NCBI GenBank assembly: GCA_964508365.1
Contig: CAZDTP010000092.1
Coordinates: 1-10,773 of the forward strand
Source of the DNA: an uncultured archaeon
GTDB lineage: Archaea; Asgardarchaeota; Lokiarchaeia; Sigyniarchaeales; SOKP01
Length of the DNA: 10,773 nt
Direction of reading: 5' to 3'
The position numbers were made by a program, and so were the translations under genes. A model generated the notes under the pieces. It saw only the letters and a program-made list of their open reading frames with translations. It did no database searches and was not told the origin of the DNA. Positions 1,216 through 9,697 of the stretch are shown here, in pieces. Numbering within the stretch: the stretch's first letter is position 1; each line of letters opens with the position of its first letter.

Positions 1216-1773
1216 ATTTCATACCGTGGTAAAGTTATACTCTGTGGTAACCCAGCTGTAGGAAAAACAAGTTTGCTTGCCCGATATGTCGATGGCAAAT
1301 TTCAAGAGGATTCAGCGCCAACGATAGGTGCTAATTTCTTGATAAAAGAAATTGATTTAAGTAAGATTGTTGATAAGTTAAACTTAGATAAACCTGAACT
1401 AAAGCAGGATATAAAGGAAAAAGGATTTAAGTTGTATTTTTGGGATCTTGGAGGGCAACACGATAAATTATACAGCACGGAATACTATTTTGTTCAAGCT
1501 GTTGGAGCTATGATCGTTTTTAACTTAAACGATTTATCGACGTTCAATGATATAAATTTTTGGTTAACTAAATTAAAAGATTTAAGTGGGGATGTTCCTT
1601 ACATTCTAGTTGGAAACAAAAAAGACTTAGATAGAAATGTAGATAAATCGCTAGTTGAAGCAGAAGTAAAGAAACTAGGTATTCAATATTTTGAGACTTC
1701 TGCGAAACTTAATGAAAACGTTGATTTGGCTTTTGAAAGTTTATCTATTCAAATTTTAAATAATCTTAAATAA
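1216..1773 (+). CDS. Ras-superfamily (Rab-like) small GTPase, about 185 aa, probable non-canonical ATT start
   Basis: The reading frame extends upstream of the track start (1273) to include the P-loop: (M)SYRGKVILCGNPAVGKTSLLARY. Other motifs: G2 PTIG, G3 WDLGGQ, G4 NKKD, G5 ETSAK. An in-frame TAG lies at 1210-1212, and no ATG/GTG/TTG occurs between it and the P-loop. Confidence 0.9.
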   Translation: MSYRGKVILCGNPAVGKTSLLARYVDGKFQEDSAPTIGANFLIKEIDLSKIVDKLNLDKPELKQDIKEKGFKLYFWDLGGQHDKLYSTEYYFVQAVGAMIVFNLNDLSTFNDINFWLTKLKDLSGDVPYILVGNKKDLDRNVDKSLVEAEVKKLGIQYFETSAKLNENVDLAFESLSIQILNNLK

Positions 1774-1779
1774 TTTTTT
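1774..1779 (+). terminator. Possible archaeal oligo-T terminator after the GTPase
   Basis: T6 run immediately after the TAA stop. Weak evidence in an AT-rich genome. Confidence 0.3.
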
Positions 1780-1799
1780 AAAATACTAATTTTGGGATG

Positions 1800-1807
1800 T
1801 TTTAAAT
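1800..1807 (+). promoter_or_regulatory. Putative TATA box for a leaderless cofC transcript
   Basis: TTTTAAAT is centred about 27 nt upstream of the cofC ATG (1831), and there is no SD motif before the ATG. Confidence 0.3.
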
Positions 1808-1830
1808 TATAACTTTGCCTAAGTTTTATA

Positions 1831-2559
1831 ATGAGCGTTCTTTTAATTCCTATTGCTCCTTTATCAAGGACAAAATCTCGTCTTAGGGATTGTTTTCCAA
1901 AAGGATTACTCAAGGATTTAACTATAGCCATGTTTAAAGACTTGGCAAAAAAAGTCCAGAATGTTGATTTTTTCGACTATACGATAGTTTATTGTCATAA
2001 CGAAGAGATTTTAGAACTAGCAGAAGAGTTTGGATTAATTGGCATCAAAGAAAAACTCACTTCTCCACGTAAATCGTTTGATTTAGTAATTAATGACCTG
2101 AACAATATTGCAATTAAAGATTATAATGCGACTAGTACTATTTTTACTTTTTTGGATGTAATTTTAATATCCGAGAATAATTTAATGGAAATCAGTAATT
2201 TAACGAAATTAAACCAGCTTGTGGTTTGCCCTGCAATTCACTCCGCAGGAATCTCTATATTCGGAAGAAATCCTCCCGATGTTCTACCTACCCATTTTTC
2301 AAACCCAAGCATTCCTTCGTTTGTTGCCTTAATAAAAGATGCTCAAAACCGCAACTTAAAACTCTCAATATATGATTCTTTTCGAGCGGGATTCGATATT
2401 GATATTAAACAAGACTTATTGTTAGGATTCGAGTATCTTAAAATCTTCGAATTAACTGAAACTGAGACATTTAAATTTTTAAATACTAATTTGAAATTAG
2501 TACTACAGAAAAGAAGTATAAAGAATAACAGAGATTTTAAGATTAGTAAAATTAAATAA
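1831..2559 (+). CDS. cofC: CofC-like guanylyltransferase of coenzyme F420 biosynthesis (2-phospho-L-lactate/PEP guanylyltransferase family), 242 aa
   Basis: N-terminal LLIPIAPLSRTKSRL matches CofC (++P+K.+..AKSRL), followed by LTIAMFKDL (AM+.D+). C-terminal GFDIDIKQDL matches the D+D...DL motif. Confidence 0.8.
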   Translation: MSVLLIPIAPLSRTKSRLRDCFPKGLLKDLTIAMFKDLAKKVQNVDFFDYTIVYCHNEEILELAEEFGLIGIKEKLTSPRKSFDLVINDLNNIAIKDYNATSTIFTFLDVILISENNLMEISNLTKLNQLVVCPAIHSAGISIFGRNPPDVLPTHFSNPSIPSFVALIKDAQNRNLKLSIYDSFRAGFDIDIKQDLLLGFEYLKIFELTETETFKFLNTNLKLVLQKRSIKNNRDFKISKIK

Positions 2560-2566
2560 TTTTTTA

Positions 2567-3799
2567 TTAGAAATTAAAAGTAATATTTAATTTAACTTCC
2601 TGATTTATAGCATCCTTTATTGACTTTTGGACCCCCTCTCTTTCATTTTTAAGAGAAGATAAGTATCTTAGATAATCCTTGTTTTTTCTATCAAGATCGT
2701 TTTCTAAATGCTCTAATTTTGCGGTATTCAACGAAATTTTATGTTTAATTTCTTCTCTCTTGACTGCTAATCCTTCATGTTCTATCTTATTTTTCATATC
2801 GTTAATTTCAGAGCGGATTATTTTGATATTGTCTATTTCATTTTGAATGGTCTTCTCGTCGAAAATAGCGTTAATTTGTTGAATTGTTTTATCTTTTACA
2901 TCAGATTTAAGGTTAAGTTTATTATCTTCTAATATATGCCGTAATTGGATGAGTAATGCTGAAAATTTAGGTAGTTCTCTACTTTCATTAACTAAAGAAT
3001 TAATTGGGTTCTTTAAAAAGTCTCTTAAGAAATAAATATTAATGTTTGGATTCTTAATTGTATCTTTTTCTAGTTCAAATTTCAACTTTTTAAGAGCTTT
3101 TTTAAATCCGAACTGATTGTTAATATTCATTCTTAAATGACCTAACTTAGCTTCTAGCTGATCTAATTCTTTAAAAAACTCATTTTTTTCGATTTTTTTG
3201 AGTGCTTCTGTTAAATTTTCTTGCTCCGCTTGTCTATCTTCTAACTCTTTTTCGAACGACTCTAAGTCAGATTTAGCATTTTCAATATTTTCTTTCAGAG
3301 CAAACAATTTCGGTATTTTTTTTAATAGATATTCTGCATCCTTTACATCCGTATATTTTTTTCTTAGAAATACGTCTAAAATCTTTTGCTTGTTACCTAA
3401 TTTGCGCGTGATATAACTCAATTCTTTAATTTCTGACTGTAACTCTTTTTGAAATTTAGGGATGGATTTTTTTGCTATGTCGTTGATGCTAGTAAACAGT
3501 TTTTTAATCGAGTTTAAGAGATTATACAGAGCATCATATGTGATATCTTCTTCAGGTACTCCAACCTCATCGATTTCCTTTCTTATTTTATCAGAAAAGA
3601 AGTGTAAAGATTTAAGAGCTTTTTCATCTATTTTTCCTTCTCCAGCTTCTATAAAATGATCTGTACAGACCTTAATTTCAAGTAAGCTCTCTTTGATATC
3701 AGATAATTGCTTTTTAACAGCTTTTTTTACCTTAAAAAACTGTGATTCAAGCTGTTCTTTGTAATAATCTTCAAATTCTTCTAATGAAATTTCAATCAT
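2567..3799 (-). CDS. Hypothetical long alpha-helical/coiled-coil protein, 410 aa
   Basis: Long uninterrupted ORF with ATG start, 17 nt downstream of the serS stop. K/E/L-rich heptad-like segments at about aa 160-230 and 320-395. No catalytic motif recognised. Confidence 0.85.
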   Translation of the reverse strand: MIEISLEEFEDYYKEQLESQFFKVKKAVKKQLSDIKESLLEIKVCTDHFIEAGEGKIDEKALKSLHFFSDKIRKEIDEVGVPEEDITYDALYNLLNSIKKLFTSINDIAKKSIPKFQKELQSEIKELSYITRKLGNKQKILDVFLRKKYTDVKDAEYLLKKIPKLFALKENIENAKSDLESFEKELEDRQAEQENLTEALKKIEKNEFFKELDQLEAKLGHLRMNINNQFGFKKALKKLKFELEKDTIKNPNINIYFLRDFLKNPINSLVNESRELPKFSALLIQLRHILEDNKLNLKSDVKDKTIQQINAIFDEKTIQNEIDNIKIIRSEINDMKNKIEHEGLAVKREEIKHKISLNTAKLEHLENDLDRKNKDYLRYLSSLKNEREGVQKSIKDAINQEVKLNITFNF

Positions 3800-5201: not shown

Positions 5202-5387
5202 TTATTCATGGTGAATTCTTTCAGATATTGTTGACCTTAGATAGGCGACTTTTATTTTATCTTTATTATATCCTACTTTATCGATAATGCTCATAATTTT
5301 TATTCTCTTTGCTTTACCTTTCAAACCTTCCTCGGTCATAAATTCTTTAGCGAATTCTTCTTTTTTGTTTTCTTCTTGCTCCACCAT
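5202..5387 (-). CDS. Small hypothetical protein, 61 aa
   Basis: ATG start with AGGT 6 nt upstream, TAA stop and protein-like charged composition. It sits alone in an otherwise non-coding interval. Confidence 0.7.
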   Translation of the reverse strand: MVEQEENKKEEFAKEFMTEEGLKGKAKRIKIMSIIDKVGYNKDKIKVAYLRSTISERIHHE

Positions 5388-5620
5388 AATTAGACCTAAT
5401 GAAAAATCAATAAAAAACTTAATGTGATTAAAAACTTGAAGTAATATTCCTTGATTTAGAATTAAACATTTTTTTAAGTCAATAACAAATTTGATTAGAA
5501 ATTATCAAACCCTAACCAGAAAAAATAAATTAATTCAATAATTTCCAAACAAAATAGGTTTTATTAAATTTAGAAATAGAACTTAAAGCAATTAACTGTT
5601 TTGGTGATGTTGTAACTAAA

Positions 5621-5625
5621 GGTGA
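5621..5625 (+). promoter_or_regulatory. Shine-Dalgarno GGTGA for hdrA
   Basis: GGTGA lies 5 nt before TTG at 5631, which opens the frame encoding the HdrA N-terminal RIGVYVC motif. Confidence 0.75.
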
Positions 5626-5630
5626 ATTAA

Positions 5631-7628
5631 TTGTCTGAAAAACAGACCACTGATAAGATAAGAATTGGAGTTTATGTGTGTAGATGAGGTGTAAATATTG
5701 GAGCCCACCTTGATTGTGATGCTGTCAGAGATTTTGTTGAACCATTACCTAATGTTGTTATCGCTCGGACCAACAATTTCACTTGTAGCGATCCTGGACA
5801 ACAAATAATCAAAAATGACATTCTAGAACTAGATTTGAACCGAATAGTCGTAGCAGCTTGCACTCCTAAGATTCATGAACCTACTTATCGAGCTGTTTTA
5901 CAAGAAGCAGGTTTAAGCCCTTACTTCTTTGAAATGGTAAATCTTAGAGAGCACTGCTCGTTTGTTCATCAAGGTGATAAAACAAACGCAACCGAAAAAG
6001 CAAAACGATTAGTTCACGCCGGTATAAATAGAGCACGGGAATTAGAAAGTGTCCCTTACAAGGAAATACCTGTAGAAAGAGCTGCATTAGTTATAGGAGC
6101 GGGAATTGCCGGAATGAACGCAGCTTTAGACTTAGCGGAACACGGGATACAAGTCTATTTAGTTGAAAAACAAGCAACCGTTGGAGGTAAAATGGCACAG
6201 TTTGATAGGATTTACCCTACAGATGATTGTGGTATATGAGTTCTTGCCCCTATTATGGTTAACGCTTCAAAACATCCTAATATCAAACTTTTCACCTATA
6301 GCGACATTATCGAGTTTAGCGGTATCACGGGAGATTACAATGTTAAGATACGTAAAAATCCAAGGTATGTGAACGAAAGCAAGTGTACCGGATGTGGCTT
6401 ATGTACTACTAAATGTCCTATAAAAGTTCCTAATGAATTTTATAATGGGATTGGTGAAAGAGGTGCAATCTATATACCATTTCCTCAAGCAGTCCCAAAT
6501 TATGCTGTTATGGATAAAAGTGTGTGCATTGATTGTAAAAACTGCGAACGAGTTTGCCCCGCAGAAGCAATAGAATTTGAACAAGTACCCGAAATTGTTG
6601 AGGTTAAGGTAGGGGCTGTTATCGTTGCTACAGGATTCGATGAATATCCAATTATTGAGACTAATGAATACAATTATGGCATTTCTCCAAATGTTATTAC
6701 TCAGATCGAAATAGAGAGTATGCTTAGCCCAATCGGTCCAACTGGAGGACACATATATAGAATCTCAGATGGAAAAACACCTAAAACTGTTGTGATGATA
6801 CAATGCGTTGGTTCTAGATCGCTAAAAGCGAATCCTTATTGTTCATTTGTGTGCTGCAGTGTTGCTCTTAAAAATGCTCAATTACTAAAACAAGAGTATC
6901 CCGAAATGGATGTTGTAATATTCTATATAGACATTAGGACTACTGATAAGGGCAACGAGGAATATTATAGAAAAATTAGAGACGCTGATGTTAGAATGAT
7001 ACGAGGAAAAGTAGGTGAAATAACCGAGGACAAAGATAATAATTTAATAGTACGCGCTTATTCCTCTTTAACGGGGGAACTTATTAAGATTAAAGCTGAT
7101 TTGGTAGTATTATCTACTGGAATGAATCCTTCAAGAGGGACTATGGAAGCCATTGAAGTTTTAGGTTTAAGTAAAGGTCCAAATGGATTTTTAACTGAAA
7201 TTCATGGTTGTTTGAAGCCGCAAGAAACAAATAATCTTGGGATTTATATTTGCGGATGCGCAGCAGGACCCAAAAACATCCCATATTCCGTTTCTACAGC
7301 CCTAGCTGCTGCTAGCAAAGCTGCTGCCTTACTTTCTCATAAAACCATTATTCAAGAATTAATCATTGCTGAAGTCAATGAGACTTTGTGTTTAGGATGT
7401 CATAGATGTGAAAAACTATGCGAATATCAAGCAATAAGCATAGATGACGGAATTGCTCATGTTGATGAATTGAAATGTAAGGGATGCGGAGTTTGTATAT
7501 CATCCTGCCCAGCAAGAGCGATCGATCTTAAATATTATCGAGATAGGCAATTCGAAGCTGAAATCAAAGGAATCGGAATGAGCGAAATAGACAGTATTCA
7601 AAAAGAATCAACTAAAATAGAAAACTAA
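5631..7628 (+). CDS. hdrA: Heterodisulfide reductase subunit A (FAD, multiple [4Fe-4S]), 665 aa, probable selenoprotein with two in-frame UGA (codon 19 at 5685-5687 and codon 203 at 6237-6239)
   Basis: Track ORFs 5835-6239 and 6255-7628 are in the same frame as the TTG at 5631. Read-through gives MSEKQTTDKIRIGVYVCR-U-GVNIGAHLD...CSDPGQ...VVAACTP...NLREHCSFVH...GAGIAG (FAD)...YPTDDCGI-U-VLAPIMVNASKHPNI. It continues with two CxxCxxCxxxC, then QCVGSR...YCSFVCCSVALK, then two C-terminal ferredoxin motifs. Both TGA align with conserved Cys (CHCG and DCxxC+L.P). Confidence 0.93.
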
Positions 7629-7633
7629 AAAAT

Positions 7634-7638
7634 GAGGT
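7634..7638 (+). promoter_or_regulatory. Shine-Dalgarno GAGGT for mvhD
   Basis: Located in the 21-nt hdrA-mvhD gap, 11 nt before ATG 7650. Confidence 0.65.
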
Positions 7639-7649
7639 AGCTTTAATCA

Positions 7650-8060
7650 ATGACAGAAAATATAAATGAGAGAAAAATAATAGCTTTTGGATGCGAAAAA
7701 TGAGGTTACTCTGCAGCCGATTTAACTGGTACTACGAGAAAATCTTATTCCCCTAATTTCCATTTAATACGAGTAAGGTGTACGGGAAGAATAGGAATTC
7801 ATCTAATTATGGAGAGTTTCTTAAATGGAGCTGATGGAGTCGCGATCATTTCTTGAAAAGAGGGAGAATGTGAATTTGGAAATGGAAACATGAATACCTA
7901 CGAACATGTAAAGTTTTTAAAAAGACTATTCAACCATTTAGGTCTAGCTGAAGAAAGAATCCAACAGTATTTTTGTTCTGCAGCGGAAGTTGAAAAATTC
8001 ATCAAATCCGTAGAAGACATCACGAGCAAGGTTGAAAAACTTCCTCCTCTACCAAAATAA
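7650..8060 (+). CDS. mvhD: MvhD/VhuD [2Fe-2S] hydrogenase delta-type subunit, 136 aa, probable selenoprotein with two in-frame UGA (codon 18 at 7701-7703 and codon 69 at 7854-7856). Absent from the ORF track.
   Basis: Manual translation: MTENINERKIIAFGCEK-U-GYSAADLTGTTRKSYSPNFHLIRVRCTGRIGIHLIMESFLNGADGVAIIS-U-KEGECEFGNGNMNTYEHVKFLKRLFNHLGLAEERIQQYFCSAAEVEKFIKSVEDITSKVEKLPPLPK*. It matches the MvhD motifs CxxCxY..AD..G, +RV.C.GR+, GADGV...GC..G.C and G+..ER+....SA.E. Confidence 0.93.
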
Positions 8061-8064
8061 AAAA

Positions 8065-8144
8065 TTAATCCGAATAAGAATGATCCTTCTAAAAAAACCT
8101 AGTTAGGAGGTAACTAACTCCCAGCGAGAGTATTCGGAAATTAA
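8065..8144 (+). promoter_or_regulatory. Candidate SECIS element (structured RNA in the mvhD 3' UTR / mvhD-frhB spacer)
   Basis: Perfect 8-bp basal stem TCCGAATA(8069-8076)/TATTCGGA(8131-8138), extendable by TTAA/TTAA. AUGA at 8080-8083, stem CCUUCU(8085-8090)/AGGAGG(8105-8110) and an apical A7 run (8091-8097). It starts just after the stop of a double-UGA gene. Folded by eye only. Confidence 0.6.
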
Positions 8145-8177
8145 GATATAGATTAAAACAACCAGAGTTTAAATAAA

Positions 8178-9671
8178 ATGAGTTTTGAGCTTAAAATTAC
8201 AAAGGAAGGTTTAAAAGATATAGCCGTTACCGTAGATTCGTATCGGATCCGCGTGTTAATTGATGCCAAACAAGAAATTCTAAATTCTGGTGTCTACAAC
8301 GAGGAACAGTACAATAAAATTTTATTCAAAATGTTTGATGATGAGCTTATTAAATATAAGCTCTACAATTTTCTAACTCGTAAAAAATCTAACGATTTTA
8401 AGGCTTTAAAAAAATTTTCGGATAAAAATTCTATAGAAATCAGTAAAACGCTGAGTTTGTTAGAGTTACTGAAAAATGAGAGTCTGGTTGCAGTGAACGA
8501 AATCTATGACCAAGTTGAAGGAGATGAAAATACTCCCACTGTGACTACTTTTAAGGATTTTGACATAAAAAGCTTCGATATTGATCCTTCAAAAATAAAA
8601 TCAATTTATGAACCTGTTGAAATTATTTTTGAAACTCATAACTGTTCTGGATGTGGTTTATGCGCTGGTATTTGTCCTGTAAATTGTATAGATGTTTACA
8701 ATGGTTTCGGTAAAATTGATGAGCTTAAATGCATAAAATGCGGTCTCTGTTATTATGTTTGTCCACGTACTTACTTACCTGTAAGTGTTTTAAACATGAC
8801 TCAAGAAGGAGCCTCACAGATTAAAAACTATTCTAAAGTAGGATATTTTTTAGAAGCATATTCGGCAAGGACCAAAATTGACGAAATTGCTAAATCTTGC
8901 CAAGACGGAGGAATAACAAGCACTTGTTTGCATTACTTATTTGATGCTAATATTATTGATATAGCATTAGGCGCTAAAATGAGTAAGACTCCGTGGAGAC
9001 CTGAACCAATTATCTTAGAGAATAAAGAAGATATTCTTCTAACCACGGGAACTAAATATGTAAACAACCCAAATTTAAAAAGTTTAAGCGAGCTTAATAA
9101 GAGAAACGCTAACTTGGCAGTGGTTGGAGTTCCTTGCATGATGCAAGCTTTACTCAAATCAGATATCTACAATATTGGCATTCCCGCATTGAATCAAATC
9201 AAATATCGCATCGGGATTTTTTGTATGGAGTCGTTCTCTTACGAATCTTTGCTAAAAATTTGCGAACTACTAAAAGTTGATGTTAATGACATAAAGAAAA
9301 CAGATATAAATAAAGGGAAGTTCTTTGTATACACTAAATCTGGTGATGAATTAACCATACCTATTAAAGAGATAGGGGGCCTAGCCCGAGAGGATTGCGA
9401 AGTCTGCTTTGATTTAACTTCTGAATCCGCTGATATTTCAATTGGCTCTATAGGATCACCTTCAGGGTGGAATACTGTTCTCATCAGAACCGAAGTTGGA
9501 AAAGAACTCTATAATAAACTAATTGAAAACGATTTAATTGAATCAAAAGAACTTTCTGAAGTTAAACCAGGTTTACCACTCCTTGAAAAAATCGCTACAT
9601 CAAAAAAAACTAAATGTAATAAACATATTGATAAAAAAAAAGAAGAAAATCTAAGATTCCCTCGATATTAA
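8178..9671 (+). CDS. FrhB/FdhB-family F420-binding FAD/Fe-S protein with a 2x[4Fe-4S] ferredoxin domain and a ~150-aa N-terminal extension, 497 aa
   Basis: Ferredoxin motifs CSGCGLCAGICP and CIKCGLCYYVCP. FrhB motifs QDGG, GTKY, VGVPCMMQAL, IGIFCMESF and CEVCFDLTSESADISIGSIGSPSGWNTVLIRT. Confidence 0.9.
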   Translation: MSFELKITKEGLKDIAVTVDSYRIRVLIDAKQEILNSGVYNEEQYNKILFKMFDDELIKYKLYNFLTRKKSNDFKALKKFSDKNSIEISKTLSLLELLKNESLVAVNEIYDQVEGDENTPTVTTFKDFDIKSFDIDPSKIKSIYEPVEIIFETHNCSGCGLCAGICPVNCIDVYNGFGKIDELKCIKCGLCYYVCPRTYLPVSVLNMTQEGASQIKNYSKVGYFLEAYSARTKIDEIAKSCQDGGITSTCLHYLFDANIIDIALGAKMSKTPWRPEPIILENKEDILLTTGTKYVNNPNLKSLSELNKRNANLAVVGVPCMMQALLKSDIYNIGIPALNQIKYRIGIFCMESFSYESLLKICELLKVDVNDIKKTDINKGKFFVYTKSGDELTIPIKEIGGLAREDCEVCFDLTSESADISIGSIGSPSGWNTVLIRTEVGKELYNKLIENDLIESKELSEVKPGLPLLEKIATSKKTKCNKHIDKKKEENLRFPRY

Positions 9672-9680
9672 GTAATAAAA

Positions 9681-9697
9681 TTCCTCCCTCTTTTTCT
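9681..9697 (+). terminator. Possible pyrimidine/oligo-T terminator ending the hdrA-mvhD-frhB unit
   Basis: TTCCTCCCTCTTTTTCT lies 9 nt after the frhB-like stop. Confidence 0.35.

Follow-up and report, generated by a model that had tools for sequence, protein, structure and literature searches.

Selenocysteine (Sec) signals of eukaryotic type were described in Lokiarchaeota as the lokiSECIS (Mariotti et al. 2016, Mol Biol Evol 33:2441, PMC4989117). A lokiSECIS carries an AUGA motif, a 9-bp stem and a loop of approx. 11 nt that starts with five adenines and ends in (A)G; the stem is followed by [G/A]A and then by C (PMC4989117). In HdrA-VhuD tandems, a single element was found downstream of VhuD and none near HdrA, and the spacer between the two genes is very short. 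HdrA contains several Sec sites, including a canonical one, and its stop codon is never UGA. According to the proposal made there, as many as six UGAs, spread over approx. 2 kb of a single polycistronic mRNA, depend on one element (PMC4989117). Elements with an AUGA_AA core in Lokiarchaeial hdrA/frhD were subsequently classed as Asgard type I eSECIS-like (Huang, Xiao, Zhang 2024, ISME J 18:wrae111, PMC11227280). That model comprises a GA_[G/A]A core, an upper stem of 7-15 bp with no more than 2 mismatches, and a loop of 8-20 nt (PMC11227280). The underlying data set includes isolate bin41, for which 19 selenoprotein genes are given (per PMC13188914). As cited in PMC11227280, a natural kink-turn with A.A at the 2b.2n position and the k-junction were treated by Schroeder et al. 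(2012) and Wang et al. (2014).

The DNA analyzed here (the window) is a 10,773-nt stretch of a contig of an uncultured archaeon of the Lokiarchaeia. A conserved, covarying RNA spans positions 8064-8141 of the window, just 3' of mvhD. In the favored reading, to which we assign a probability of roughly 0.88, this RNA is a lokiSECIS shared by hdrA and mvhD, and all four in-frame UGAs of these genes are read as Sec; the binding partner of the RNA, the co-transcription of the genes, and the action of the element at a distance are what we infer. The finding itself is already known, as the signal type, the AUGA_AA core, and the sharing between hdrA and mvhD were published in 2016 and 2024. An earlier note on this DNA, which had offered the AA variant and the cross-cistron sharing as its own inference, had thus been anticipated on both points (PMC4989117, PMC11227280).

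The hdrA-mvhD locus

hdrA (5631-7628, + strand) encodes a 665-aa protein resembling heterodisulfide reductase subunit A, with Pfam Fer4 and FAD domains, and terminates with UAA. Its in-frame UGAs lie at 5685-5687 (codon 19) and 6237-6239 (codon 203). Upon alignment with PDB 9sfi_A (E 3.6e-214), U203 falls opposite the X (Sec) of that chain and U19 opposite a Cys. The second gene, mvhD (also vhuD or frhD; 7650-8060, + strand), encodes a 136-aa hydrogenase delta subunit (PF02662 FlpD, E 4.6e-39), likewise with a UAA stop. It has in-frame UGAs at 7701-7703 (codon 18) and 7854-7856 (codon 69), and both encoded U residues face X (Sec) residues of PDB 9sfi_K. The two genes are separated by a 21-nt spacer (7629-7649, + strand), which contains a GAGGT Shine-Dalgarno-like motif at 7634-7638. 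The hdrA-mvhD junction is unstructured (MFE 0 kcal/mol) and has no + strand T5 run.

The same arrangement recurs in orthologous loci. The spacer measures 5-21 nt in 29 of 30 orthologues, and the mvhD start was not resolved in the remaining one. The canonical hdrA UGA is retained in all 30, and hdrA ends in TAA or TAG in each of them, never in TGA; mvhD orthologues carry two TGA codons or, in some cases, only one. This combination of a short gap, a canonical UGA, and a non-UGA hdrA stop corresponds to the argument for sharing put forward by Mariotti and coworkers (PMC4989117).

Standard ORF calling splits both hdrA and mvhD, as would be expected if the UGAs were true stops, the genes pseudogenes or split genes, and the downstream hairpin irrelevant. 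However, the frames are open and conserved through the UGAs, which occupy Sec/Cys positions of solved homologues and are kept in dozens of genomes, and this explanation is effectively refuted. Because the UGA sites lie opposite Sec or Cys in solved homologues, hdrA and mvhD are predicted to be intact selenoprotein genes.

Downstream of mvhD, a 117-nt spacer containing the SECIS leads to a gene for an FrhB-family Fe-S/flavin protein (8178-9671, + strand; PF04432 and PF04422). On the + strand, 8061-8177 contains no T5 run, and the first intergenic one, at 9691-9695, lies just past the FrhB-like stop codon. Since no such run occurs before 9691, the SECIS is probably intercistronic within a putative three-gene hdrA-mvhD-frhB-like transcript rather than located in a terminal 3' UTR. 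A Ras-family GTPase is also encoded in the window.

The closest public match to mvhD, 97% identical, lies on a contig of isolate bin41; among public sequences, the locus is most closely related to MAGs titled Promethearchaeota/Promethearchaeia. One public contig (L057, DATKTW010000173.1) with a 96%-identical mvhD and the SECIS bears the title 'Candidatus Nanopelagicaceae bacterium', and further contigs (several of them JBHL entries) at 75-90% identity bear titles of Hermodarchaeota, Hodarchaeota or Odinarchaeota. These MAG contigs, L057 and the JBHL entries, have probably been mis-binned or mislabelled.

Conservation and fold of the element

The element stands behind mvhD in 30 of 30 orthologues of the genus and in every one of the 60 public Promethearchaeota loci in which the sequence continues 3' of mvhD (61 loci in all; 53-96 bits). 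A MAFFT alignment (A1) was assembled from 30 sequences, namely the window, one paralogue, and 28 orthologues of the genus, and a three-helix fold with the upper helix lengthened by two A-U pairs was counted on it. In this alignment, 85% of cells are paired and 17 of 24 pairs show changes on both sides; none of 500 shuffles matches this result, and slid controls reach 21-53% paired. RNAalifold, to which no structure was supplied, returns all three helices. The three-helix fold of the earlier note, in which every named base is located as claimed, is thus backed by covariation. Among 57 distinct public sequences, both-side changes occur in 7 of 9 upper-stem pairs and in all 5 side-hairpin pairs, in an alignment that was fitted to a covariance model and therefore leans towards the structure.

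Folding of the single sequence gives an MFE of -17.7 kcal/mol (z -2.65) with an inner fold that differs from the SECIS fold, so that of the folding checks proposed earlier, the comparative one yields the three helices and the single-sequence one does not. The MFE inner fold was rejected, as its inner helices have 42-80% of cells paired versus 79-93% for those of the SECIS fold; energy models do not score kink-turns.

The basal helix is formed by a 5' strand at 8069-8076 (+ strand), with a CCGAA core at 8070-8074, and a 3' strand at 8131-8138 (+ strand; UAUUCGGA), which is seen in the alignment count, in the RNAalifold result, and in the other SECISes of the genome. Pairs 8070-8074/8133-8137 are kept in 27-30 of the 30 aligned sequences. 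The helix of 8069-8076 with 8131-8138 proposed in the earlier note is therefore present, with its core retained; its outermost pair, 8076/8131, is mostly lost in the alignment. Within orthologues, conservation of the basal helix exceeds covariation, and among 10 SECISes of the genome all 8 positions covary.

Above the basal helix, the bulged strand of the predicted kink-turn (8077-8083, + strand) provides A8077 and G8078 to the C-stem, followed by the bulge A8079-A8080-U8081 and by G8082 and A8083. AUGA (8080-8083), which begins 20 nt past the end of the mvhD stop codon, is invariant together with G8078 in 30 of 30 and in 57 of 57 aligned sequences. The non-bulged strand (8112-8115, + strand) places A8112 (2n) opposite A8083 and A8113 (1n) opposite G8082, and completes the C-stem with C8114 and U8115. 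A8113 and C8114 are invariant among orthologues, and so is the C-stem pair G8078-C8114; A8077-U8115 is kept in 24 of 30 sequences, with two U-A swaps, and the C-stem is as formerly described. Most orthologues carry A at position 8112, and some (e.g., L011, L015, L021, L025, L032) carry G. The A.A second sheared pair noted earlier is thus real, and the alternation between A and G is what would be expected at 2n in a kink-turn compatible with either A.G or A.A. Read from sequence, the kink-turn pattern comprises an R-A-U bulge, the pairs G8082.A8113 and A8083.A8112, and the invariant G8078-C8114.

The upper stem and apical loop occupy 8084-8111 (+ strand). The stem (8084-8092/8103-8111) has nine positions, U8084.U8111 plus eight standard pairs, and the loop (8093-8102; AAAAACCUAG) is A-rich and ends in AG, with an invariant final G8102. 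The earlier note had a shorter upper helix and a 14-nt loop. This was a register slip: A8091-U8104 and A8092-U8103 also pair and are A-U in nearly every sequence with bases at those columns, so the loop is 10 nt long. Most orthologues have an 11-nt loop, and 10 nt is the length in the subclade of the window.

The third helix is a side hairpin (8118-8130, + strand), in which CUC (8118-8120) pairs with GAG (8128-8130), C8122 pairs with G8126, and G8124-C8125 lie in the loop. The CUC/GAG hairpin had been proposed before, and the 57-sequence comparison is in agreement; in the 30-sequence alignment, its pair 8119/8129 is U-A in 19 sequences and C-G in 8. An alternative register, in which AUGA would face GA at 8128-8129, was rejected because the covariation of these bases places them in the 3' strand of the side hairpin; the pairing is not conserved, and the copy of the element on contig C72 of the same genome has GG there.

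The position of the mvhD stop codon relative to the element varies. In many orthologues (loci L013-L032), the stop is UAG directly before (A/G)AUGA, and in L021, L023, L025, and L032, the UGA of AUGA is itself the mvhD stop. With the stop at or next to AUGA, the 5' strand of the basal helix in these orthologues lies inside the coding sequence. Some orthologues have two tandem AUGAs (CCGAAUGAGAAUGA).

Relation to described SECIS elements

The element has the features published for the lokiSECIS. AUGA is located 5' of the upper stem, and AA follows the stem and precedes the invariant C8114. The nine-position stem corresponds to the 9 bp of Mariotti and lies within the 7-15 bp with at most 2 mismatches of Huang; the 10-nt loop is one short of Mariotti's 11 nt and inside Huang's 8-20 nt. 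The element is near the 3' end of a UGA gene and, in the hdrA-mvhD pair, occurs only after mvhD. By all published features of sequence and predicted structure, it is a lokiSECIS, or Asgard type I eSECIS-like element, in line with the eukaryote-like identity suggested in the earlier note. Nonetheless, the window differs from the 2016 description in several details. The 3' core is AA here, whereas in the 2016 text AA is given for VhuU alone (PMC4989117); the loop is one nucleotide shorter and the first stem position is U.U; and the side hairpin and basal helix are absent from the text of that paper. The Huang model is a simple internal loop with a lower stem and no third arm, in contrast to the three-armed element of the window.

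Like eukaryotic type I SECISes, the element combines a predicted kink-turn core, AUGA opposite purine-A, and unpaired loop adenines, lies downstream of the coding sequence, and is predicted to act at a distance on several UGAs. In contrast to them, its upper helix has only nine positions, a length called shorter than the eukaryotic stem in PMC4989117, its core is A.A rather than A.G, and it has an additional side hairpin and would reside on a prokaryotic polycistronic mRNA. Moreover, no counterpart of eukaryotic SBP2 is known in Lokiarchaeota (PMC4989117), and Rfam SECIS_1 has no match here; an Rfam cmscan of the whole window at E up to 10 revealed no SECIS family and no other credible family.

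Insofar as the A.A kink-turns and the k-junction are covered by the citations in PMC11227280, the element shares with the former, in sequence, a 3-nt bulge, G.A at 1b.1n, and A.A at 2b.2n, and with the latter a third helix that emerges from the non-bulged strand near the turn. Unlike in the k-junction as cited there, this helix does not start at the turn but below it, separated by two base pairs and two unpaired bases.

The VhuD SECIS of Methanococcales and Methanopyrus has the same upstream gene, and in it, too, AUGA lies opposite [G/A]AC (PMC4989117). The euryarchaeal VhuD element is characterized by an extra stem and by an asymmetric GAA_A bulge that separates a GC-rich lower stem from an upper stem of 3 G/C pairs; this bulge and this upper stem are absent here; by inspection, no GAA_A bulge was found in 8064-8141, the CUC/GAG hairpin included. 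In addition, hdrA of Methanococcales and Methanopyrus has been described with its own SECIS, unlike hdrA in the window.

A probable shared element for two cistrons

Measured to the AUGA at 8080, the UGAs at 5685, 6237, 7701, and 7854 lie 2395, 1843, 379, and 226 nt upstream, in accordance with the approx. 0.2, 0.4, 1.8, and 2.4 kb, and with the 21-nt gap, given in the earlier note. If the element serves mvhD only, the hdrA UGAs would be recoded by a separate, undetected signal, for instance a bacterial-type hairpin within the reading frame or, as known for one methanococcal gene, an element in the 5' UTR. In favor of such an arrangement, recoding over 1.8-2.4 kb across a stop and a start codon has never been shown experimentally, and the covariance models applied here (R1 and R2) find only elements resembling the known one. 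R1, built from A1, scores 89 bits at 8064-8141, which answers the proposal to model mvhD 3' regions with a conserved and covarying element; the next match in the window reaches 12 bits with filters off. Over the hdrA 5' region, coding sequence, and spacer (5380-7650), R1 reveals no second element, the outcome that the earlier note had named as a test of sharing. When the 70 nt after each of the four UGAs were folded, none showed structure beyond that of shuffles; z values after the hdrA UGAs were 0.02 and 0.81. No other element emerged from published surveys (PMC4989117), and the non-UGA stops of all 30 hdrA orthologues also argue against a signal confined to mvhD.

The strongest new argument for sharing comes from a natural control in the same genome. 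Contig C72 carries, at 1655-3765, an hdrA paralogue that is 75% identical, has the same two UGA sites, and lacks mvhD. A 79%-identical copy of the element lies 14 nt past its stop codon, 1448 and 2000 nt downstream of the two UGAs, and is followed by a convergent gene. At least 14 genomes of the genus have a contiguous junction between this hdrA and the element. The last approx. 20 residues of the C72 HdrA resemble the MvhD C-terminus (BLASTP E 1e-4), and the locus looks as if most of mvhD had been lost by an in-frame deletion while the SECIS was retained. As no mvhD is present and the downstream gene is convergent, the C72 element can only serve the hdrA UGAs.

The absence of a second model match, the short gap, and the C72 paralogue together support the earlier proposal of one element for two cistrons, which is the best reading of the sequence data. 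An element restricted to mvhD is unlikely, and it is likely, with good though not complete assurance, that the element in the window also serves hdrA.

Under this shared-element reading, the mRNA would fold into a three-way junction composed of the basal helix, the short side hairpin, and a functional kink-turn arm. The latter would contain the 2-bp C-stem, the AAU bulge, and the two sheared pairs, and would be capped by the nine-position stem and the A-rich loop ending in AG. The element would then recruit the Sec-specific elongation factor with Sec-tRNASec, either directly or via a kink-turn-binding protein, and ribosomes would read the mvhD UGAs at 7701 and 7854 as selenocysteine. The hdrA UGAs at 5685 and 6237, on the far side of the cistron boundary, would be read likewise, since hdrA is proposed to be on the same transcript as the element.

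Other SECISes and the Sec machinery of the genome

A second covariance model, R2, was built from the genome's own copies of the element. Taken together, R1 and R2 detect 11 elements at E < 1e-5 plus one weak one genome-wide. A loose descriptor (ATGA, a 9-bp stem with up to 2 mismatches, a loop beginning AAA, and [GA]A) returned 88 matches versus 48-60 in shuffles; as it is unspecific in this AT-rich genome, the covariance models were used instead.

Apart from the element in the window, the matches are mostly located behind UGA genes, as the earlier note had predicted. These include mvhD paralogues with two UGAs (C53 and C46), prxL (C79), and a vhuU-like gene (C8) whose stop codon is the UGA of AUGA. 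The element at C6:66491-66566 (- strand) lies behind a one-helix membrane ORF of approx. 60 aa, a UxxC micro-protein ending in GGGUPSTCSIFTNVF, and that at C22:21770-21845 (+ strand) behind a protein of approx. 160 aa with adjacent U residues (HADUUADNM). Neither of the C6 and C22 protein families is among the five families named in the 2016 paper (PMC4989117). For the elements at C4:47518-47596 (- strand), C89:6344-6418 (- strand), and C13:24320-24400 (+ strand), no upstream selenoprotein ORF could be named. All three are three-armed and score 40-65 bits with R2, and the apical region of the C13 element is longer and type II-like; they may mark unannotated selenoprotein genes.

These data bear on the possibility that the RNA is a generic kink-turn or three-way junction with a role in termination, in RNA processing or stability, or as a translational operator of the frhB-like gene bound by L7Ae, in which case it would be tied to selenoprotein genes only indirectly. 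The element lies 40 nt before the start of the next gene and is probably intercistronic, and no SBP2 has been found in Lokiarchaeota (PMC4989117), which would also fit a role outside Sec insertion. Against this, the same architecture recurs behind unrelated UGA genes whose downstream neighbours vary and include the convergent gene on C72, no T-run follows the element, and in some orthologues the element overlaps or supplies the mvhD stop codon. A generic function of this kind is very unlikely, and the element is, with high probability, a functional SECIS.

The genome also encodes parts of the Sec machinery. SepSecS and a selD with one TGA score above their profile cut-offs, and PSTK-like and SelB-like matches fall below cut-offs that were built for other lineages. 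A search with RF01852 did not find tRNA-Sec in the genome, and four relaxed aragorn candidates have no Rfam support. The SelB-like GTPase gene (C19:2090-2977) and SepSecS (C19:8273-9574) lie approx. 5 kb apart on one contig and may represent a small Sec-machinery neighbourhood.

The third arm

The side hairpin and basal helix are present in all 10 SECISes of the genome, behind several different gene families. In each case, [G/A]AC and a linker of 2-3 nt precede a short hairpin whose loop contains GC or GU, which results in a three-way junction. Compensatory changes among these 10 SECISes occur in 23 of 24 pairs, as counted in a model-fitted alignment. Two other Asgard families yield R2 matches with this three-armed shape as well, and the third arm covaries there too. 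No description of the third arm was found in the main text of Mariotti 2016, of Huang 2024, or of a 2026 review, or by full-text search.

Published models depict a two-helix 'eukaryote-like' hairpin. In contrast, the functional unit of the Asgard SECIS might be a three-way junction whose third arm docks an archaeal SECIS-recognition factor, a suggestion that is tentative and for which we consider the odds to be slightly less than even. The conserved third arm is, in any case, a concrete target for mutagenesis.

Significance

The locus does not change the current understanding of Sec insertion in these archaea. It adds one more well-conserved case to the published claim that a single 3' element serves two cistrons, here over distances of up to 2.4 kb. 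With respect to annotation, hdrA and mvhD, which gene callers cut up, would be intact selenoprotein genes with four Sec codons, and the 117-nt 'intergenic' stretch is predicted to be a functional RNA. The value of the locus thus lies in this annotation, in the natural control for sharing provided by the mvhD-less hdrA paralogue, and in the targets that it offers for mutagenesis.
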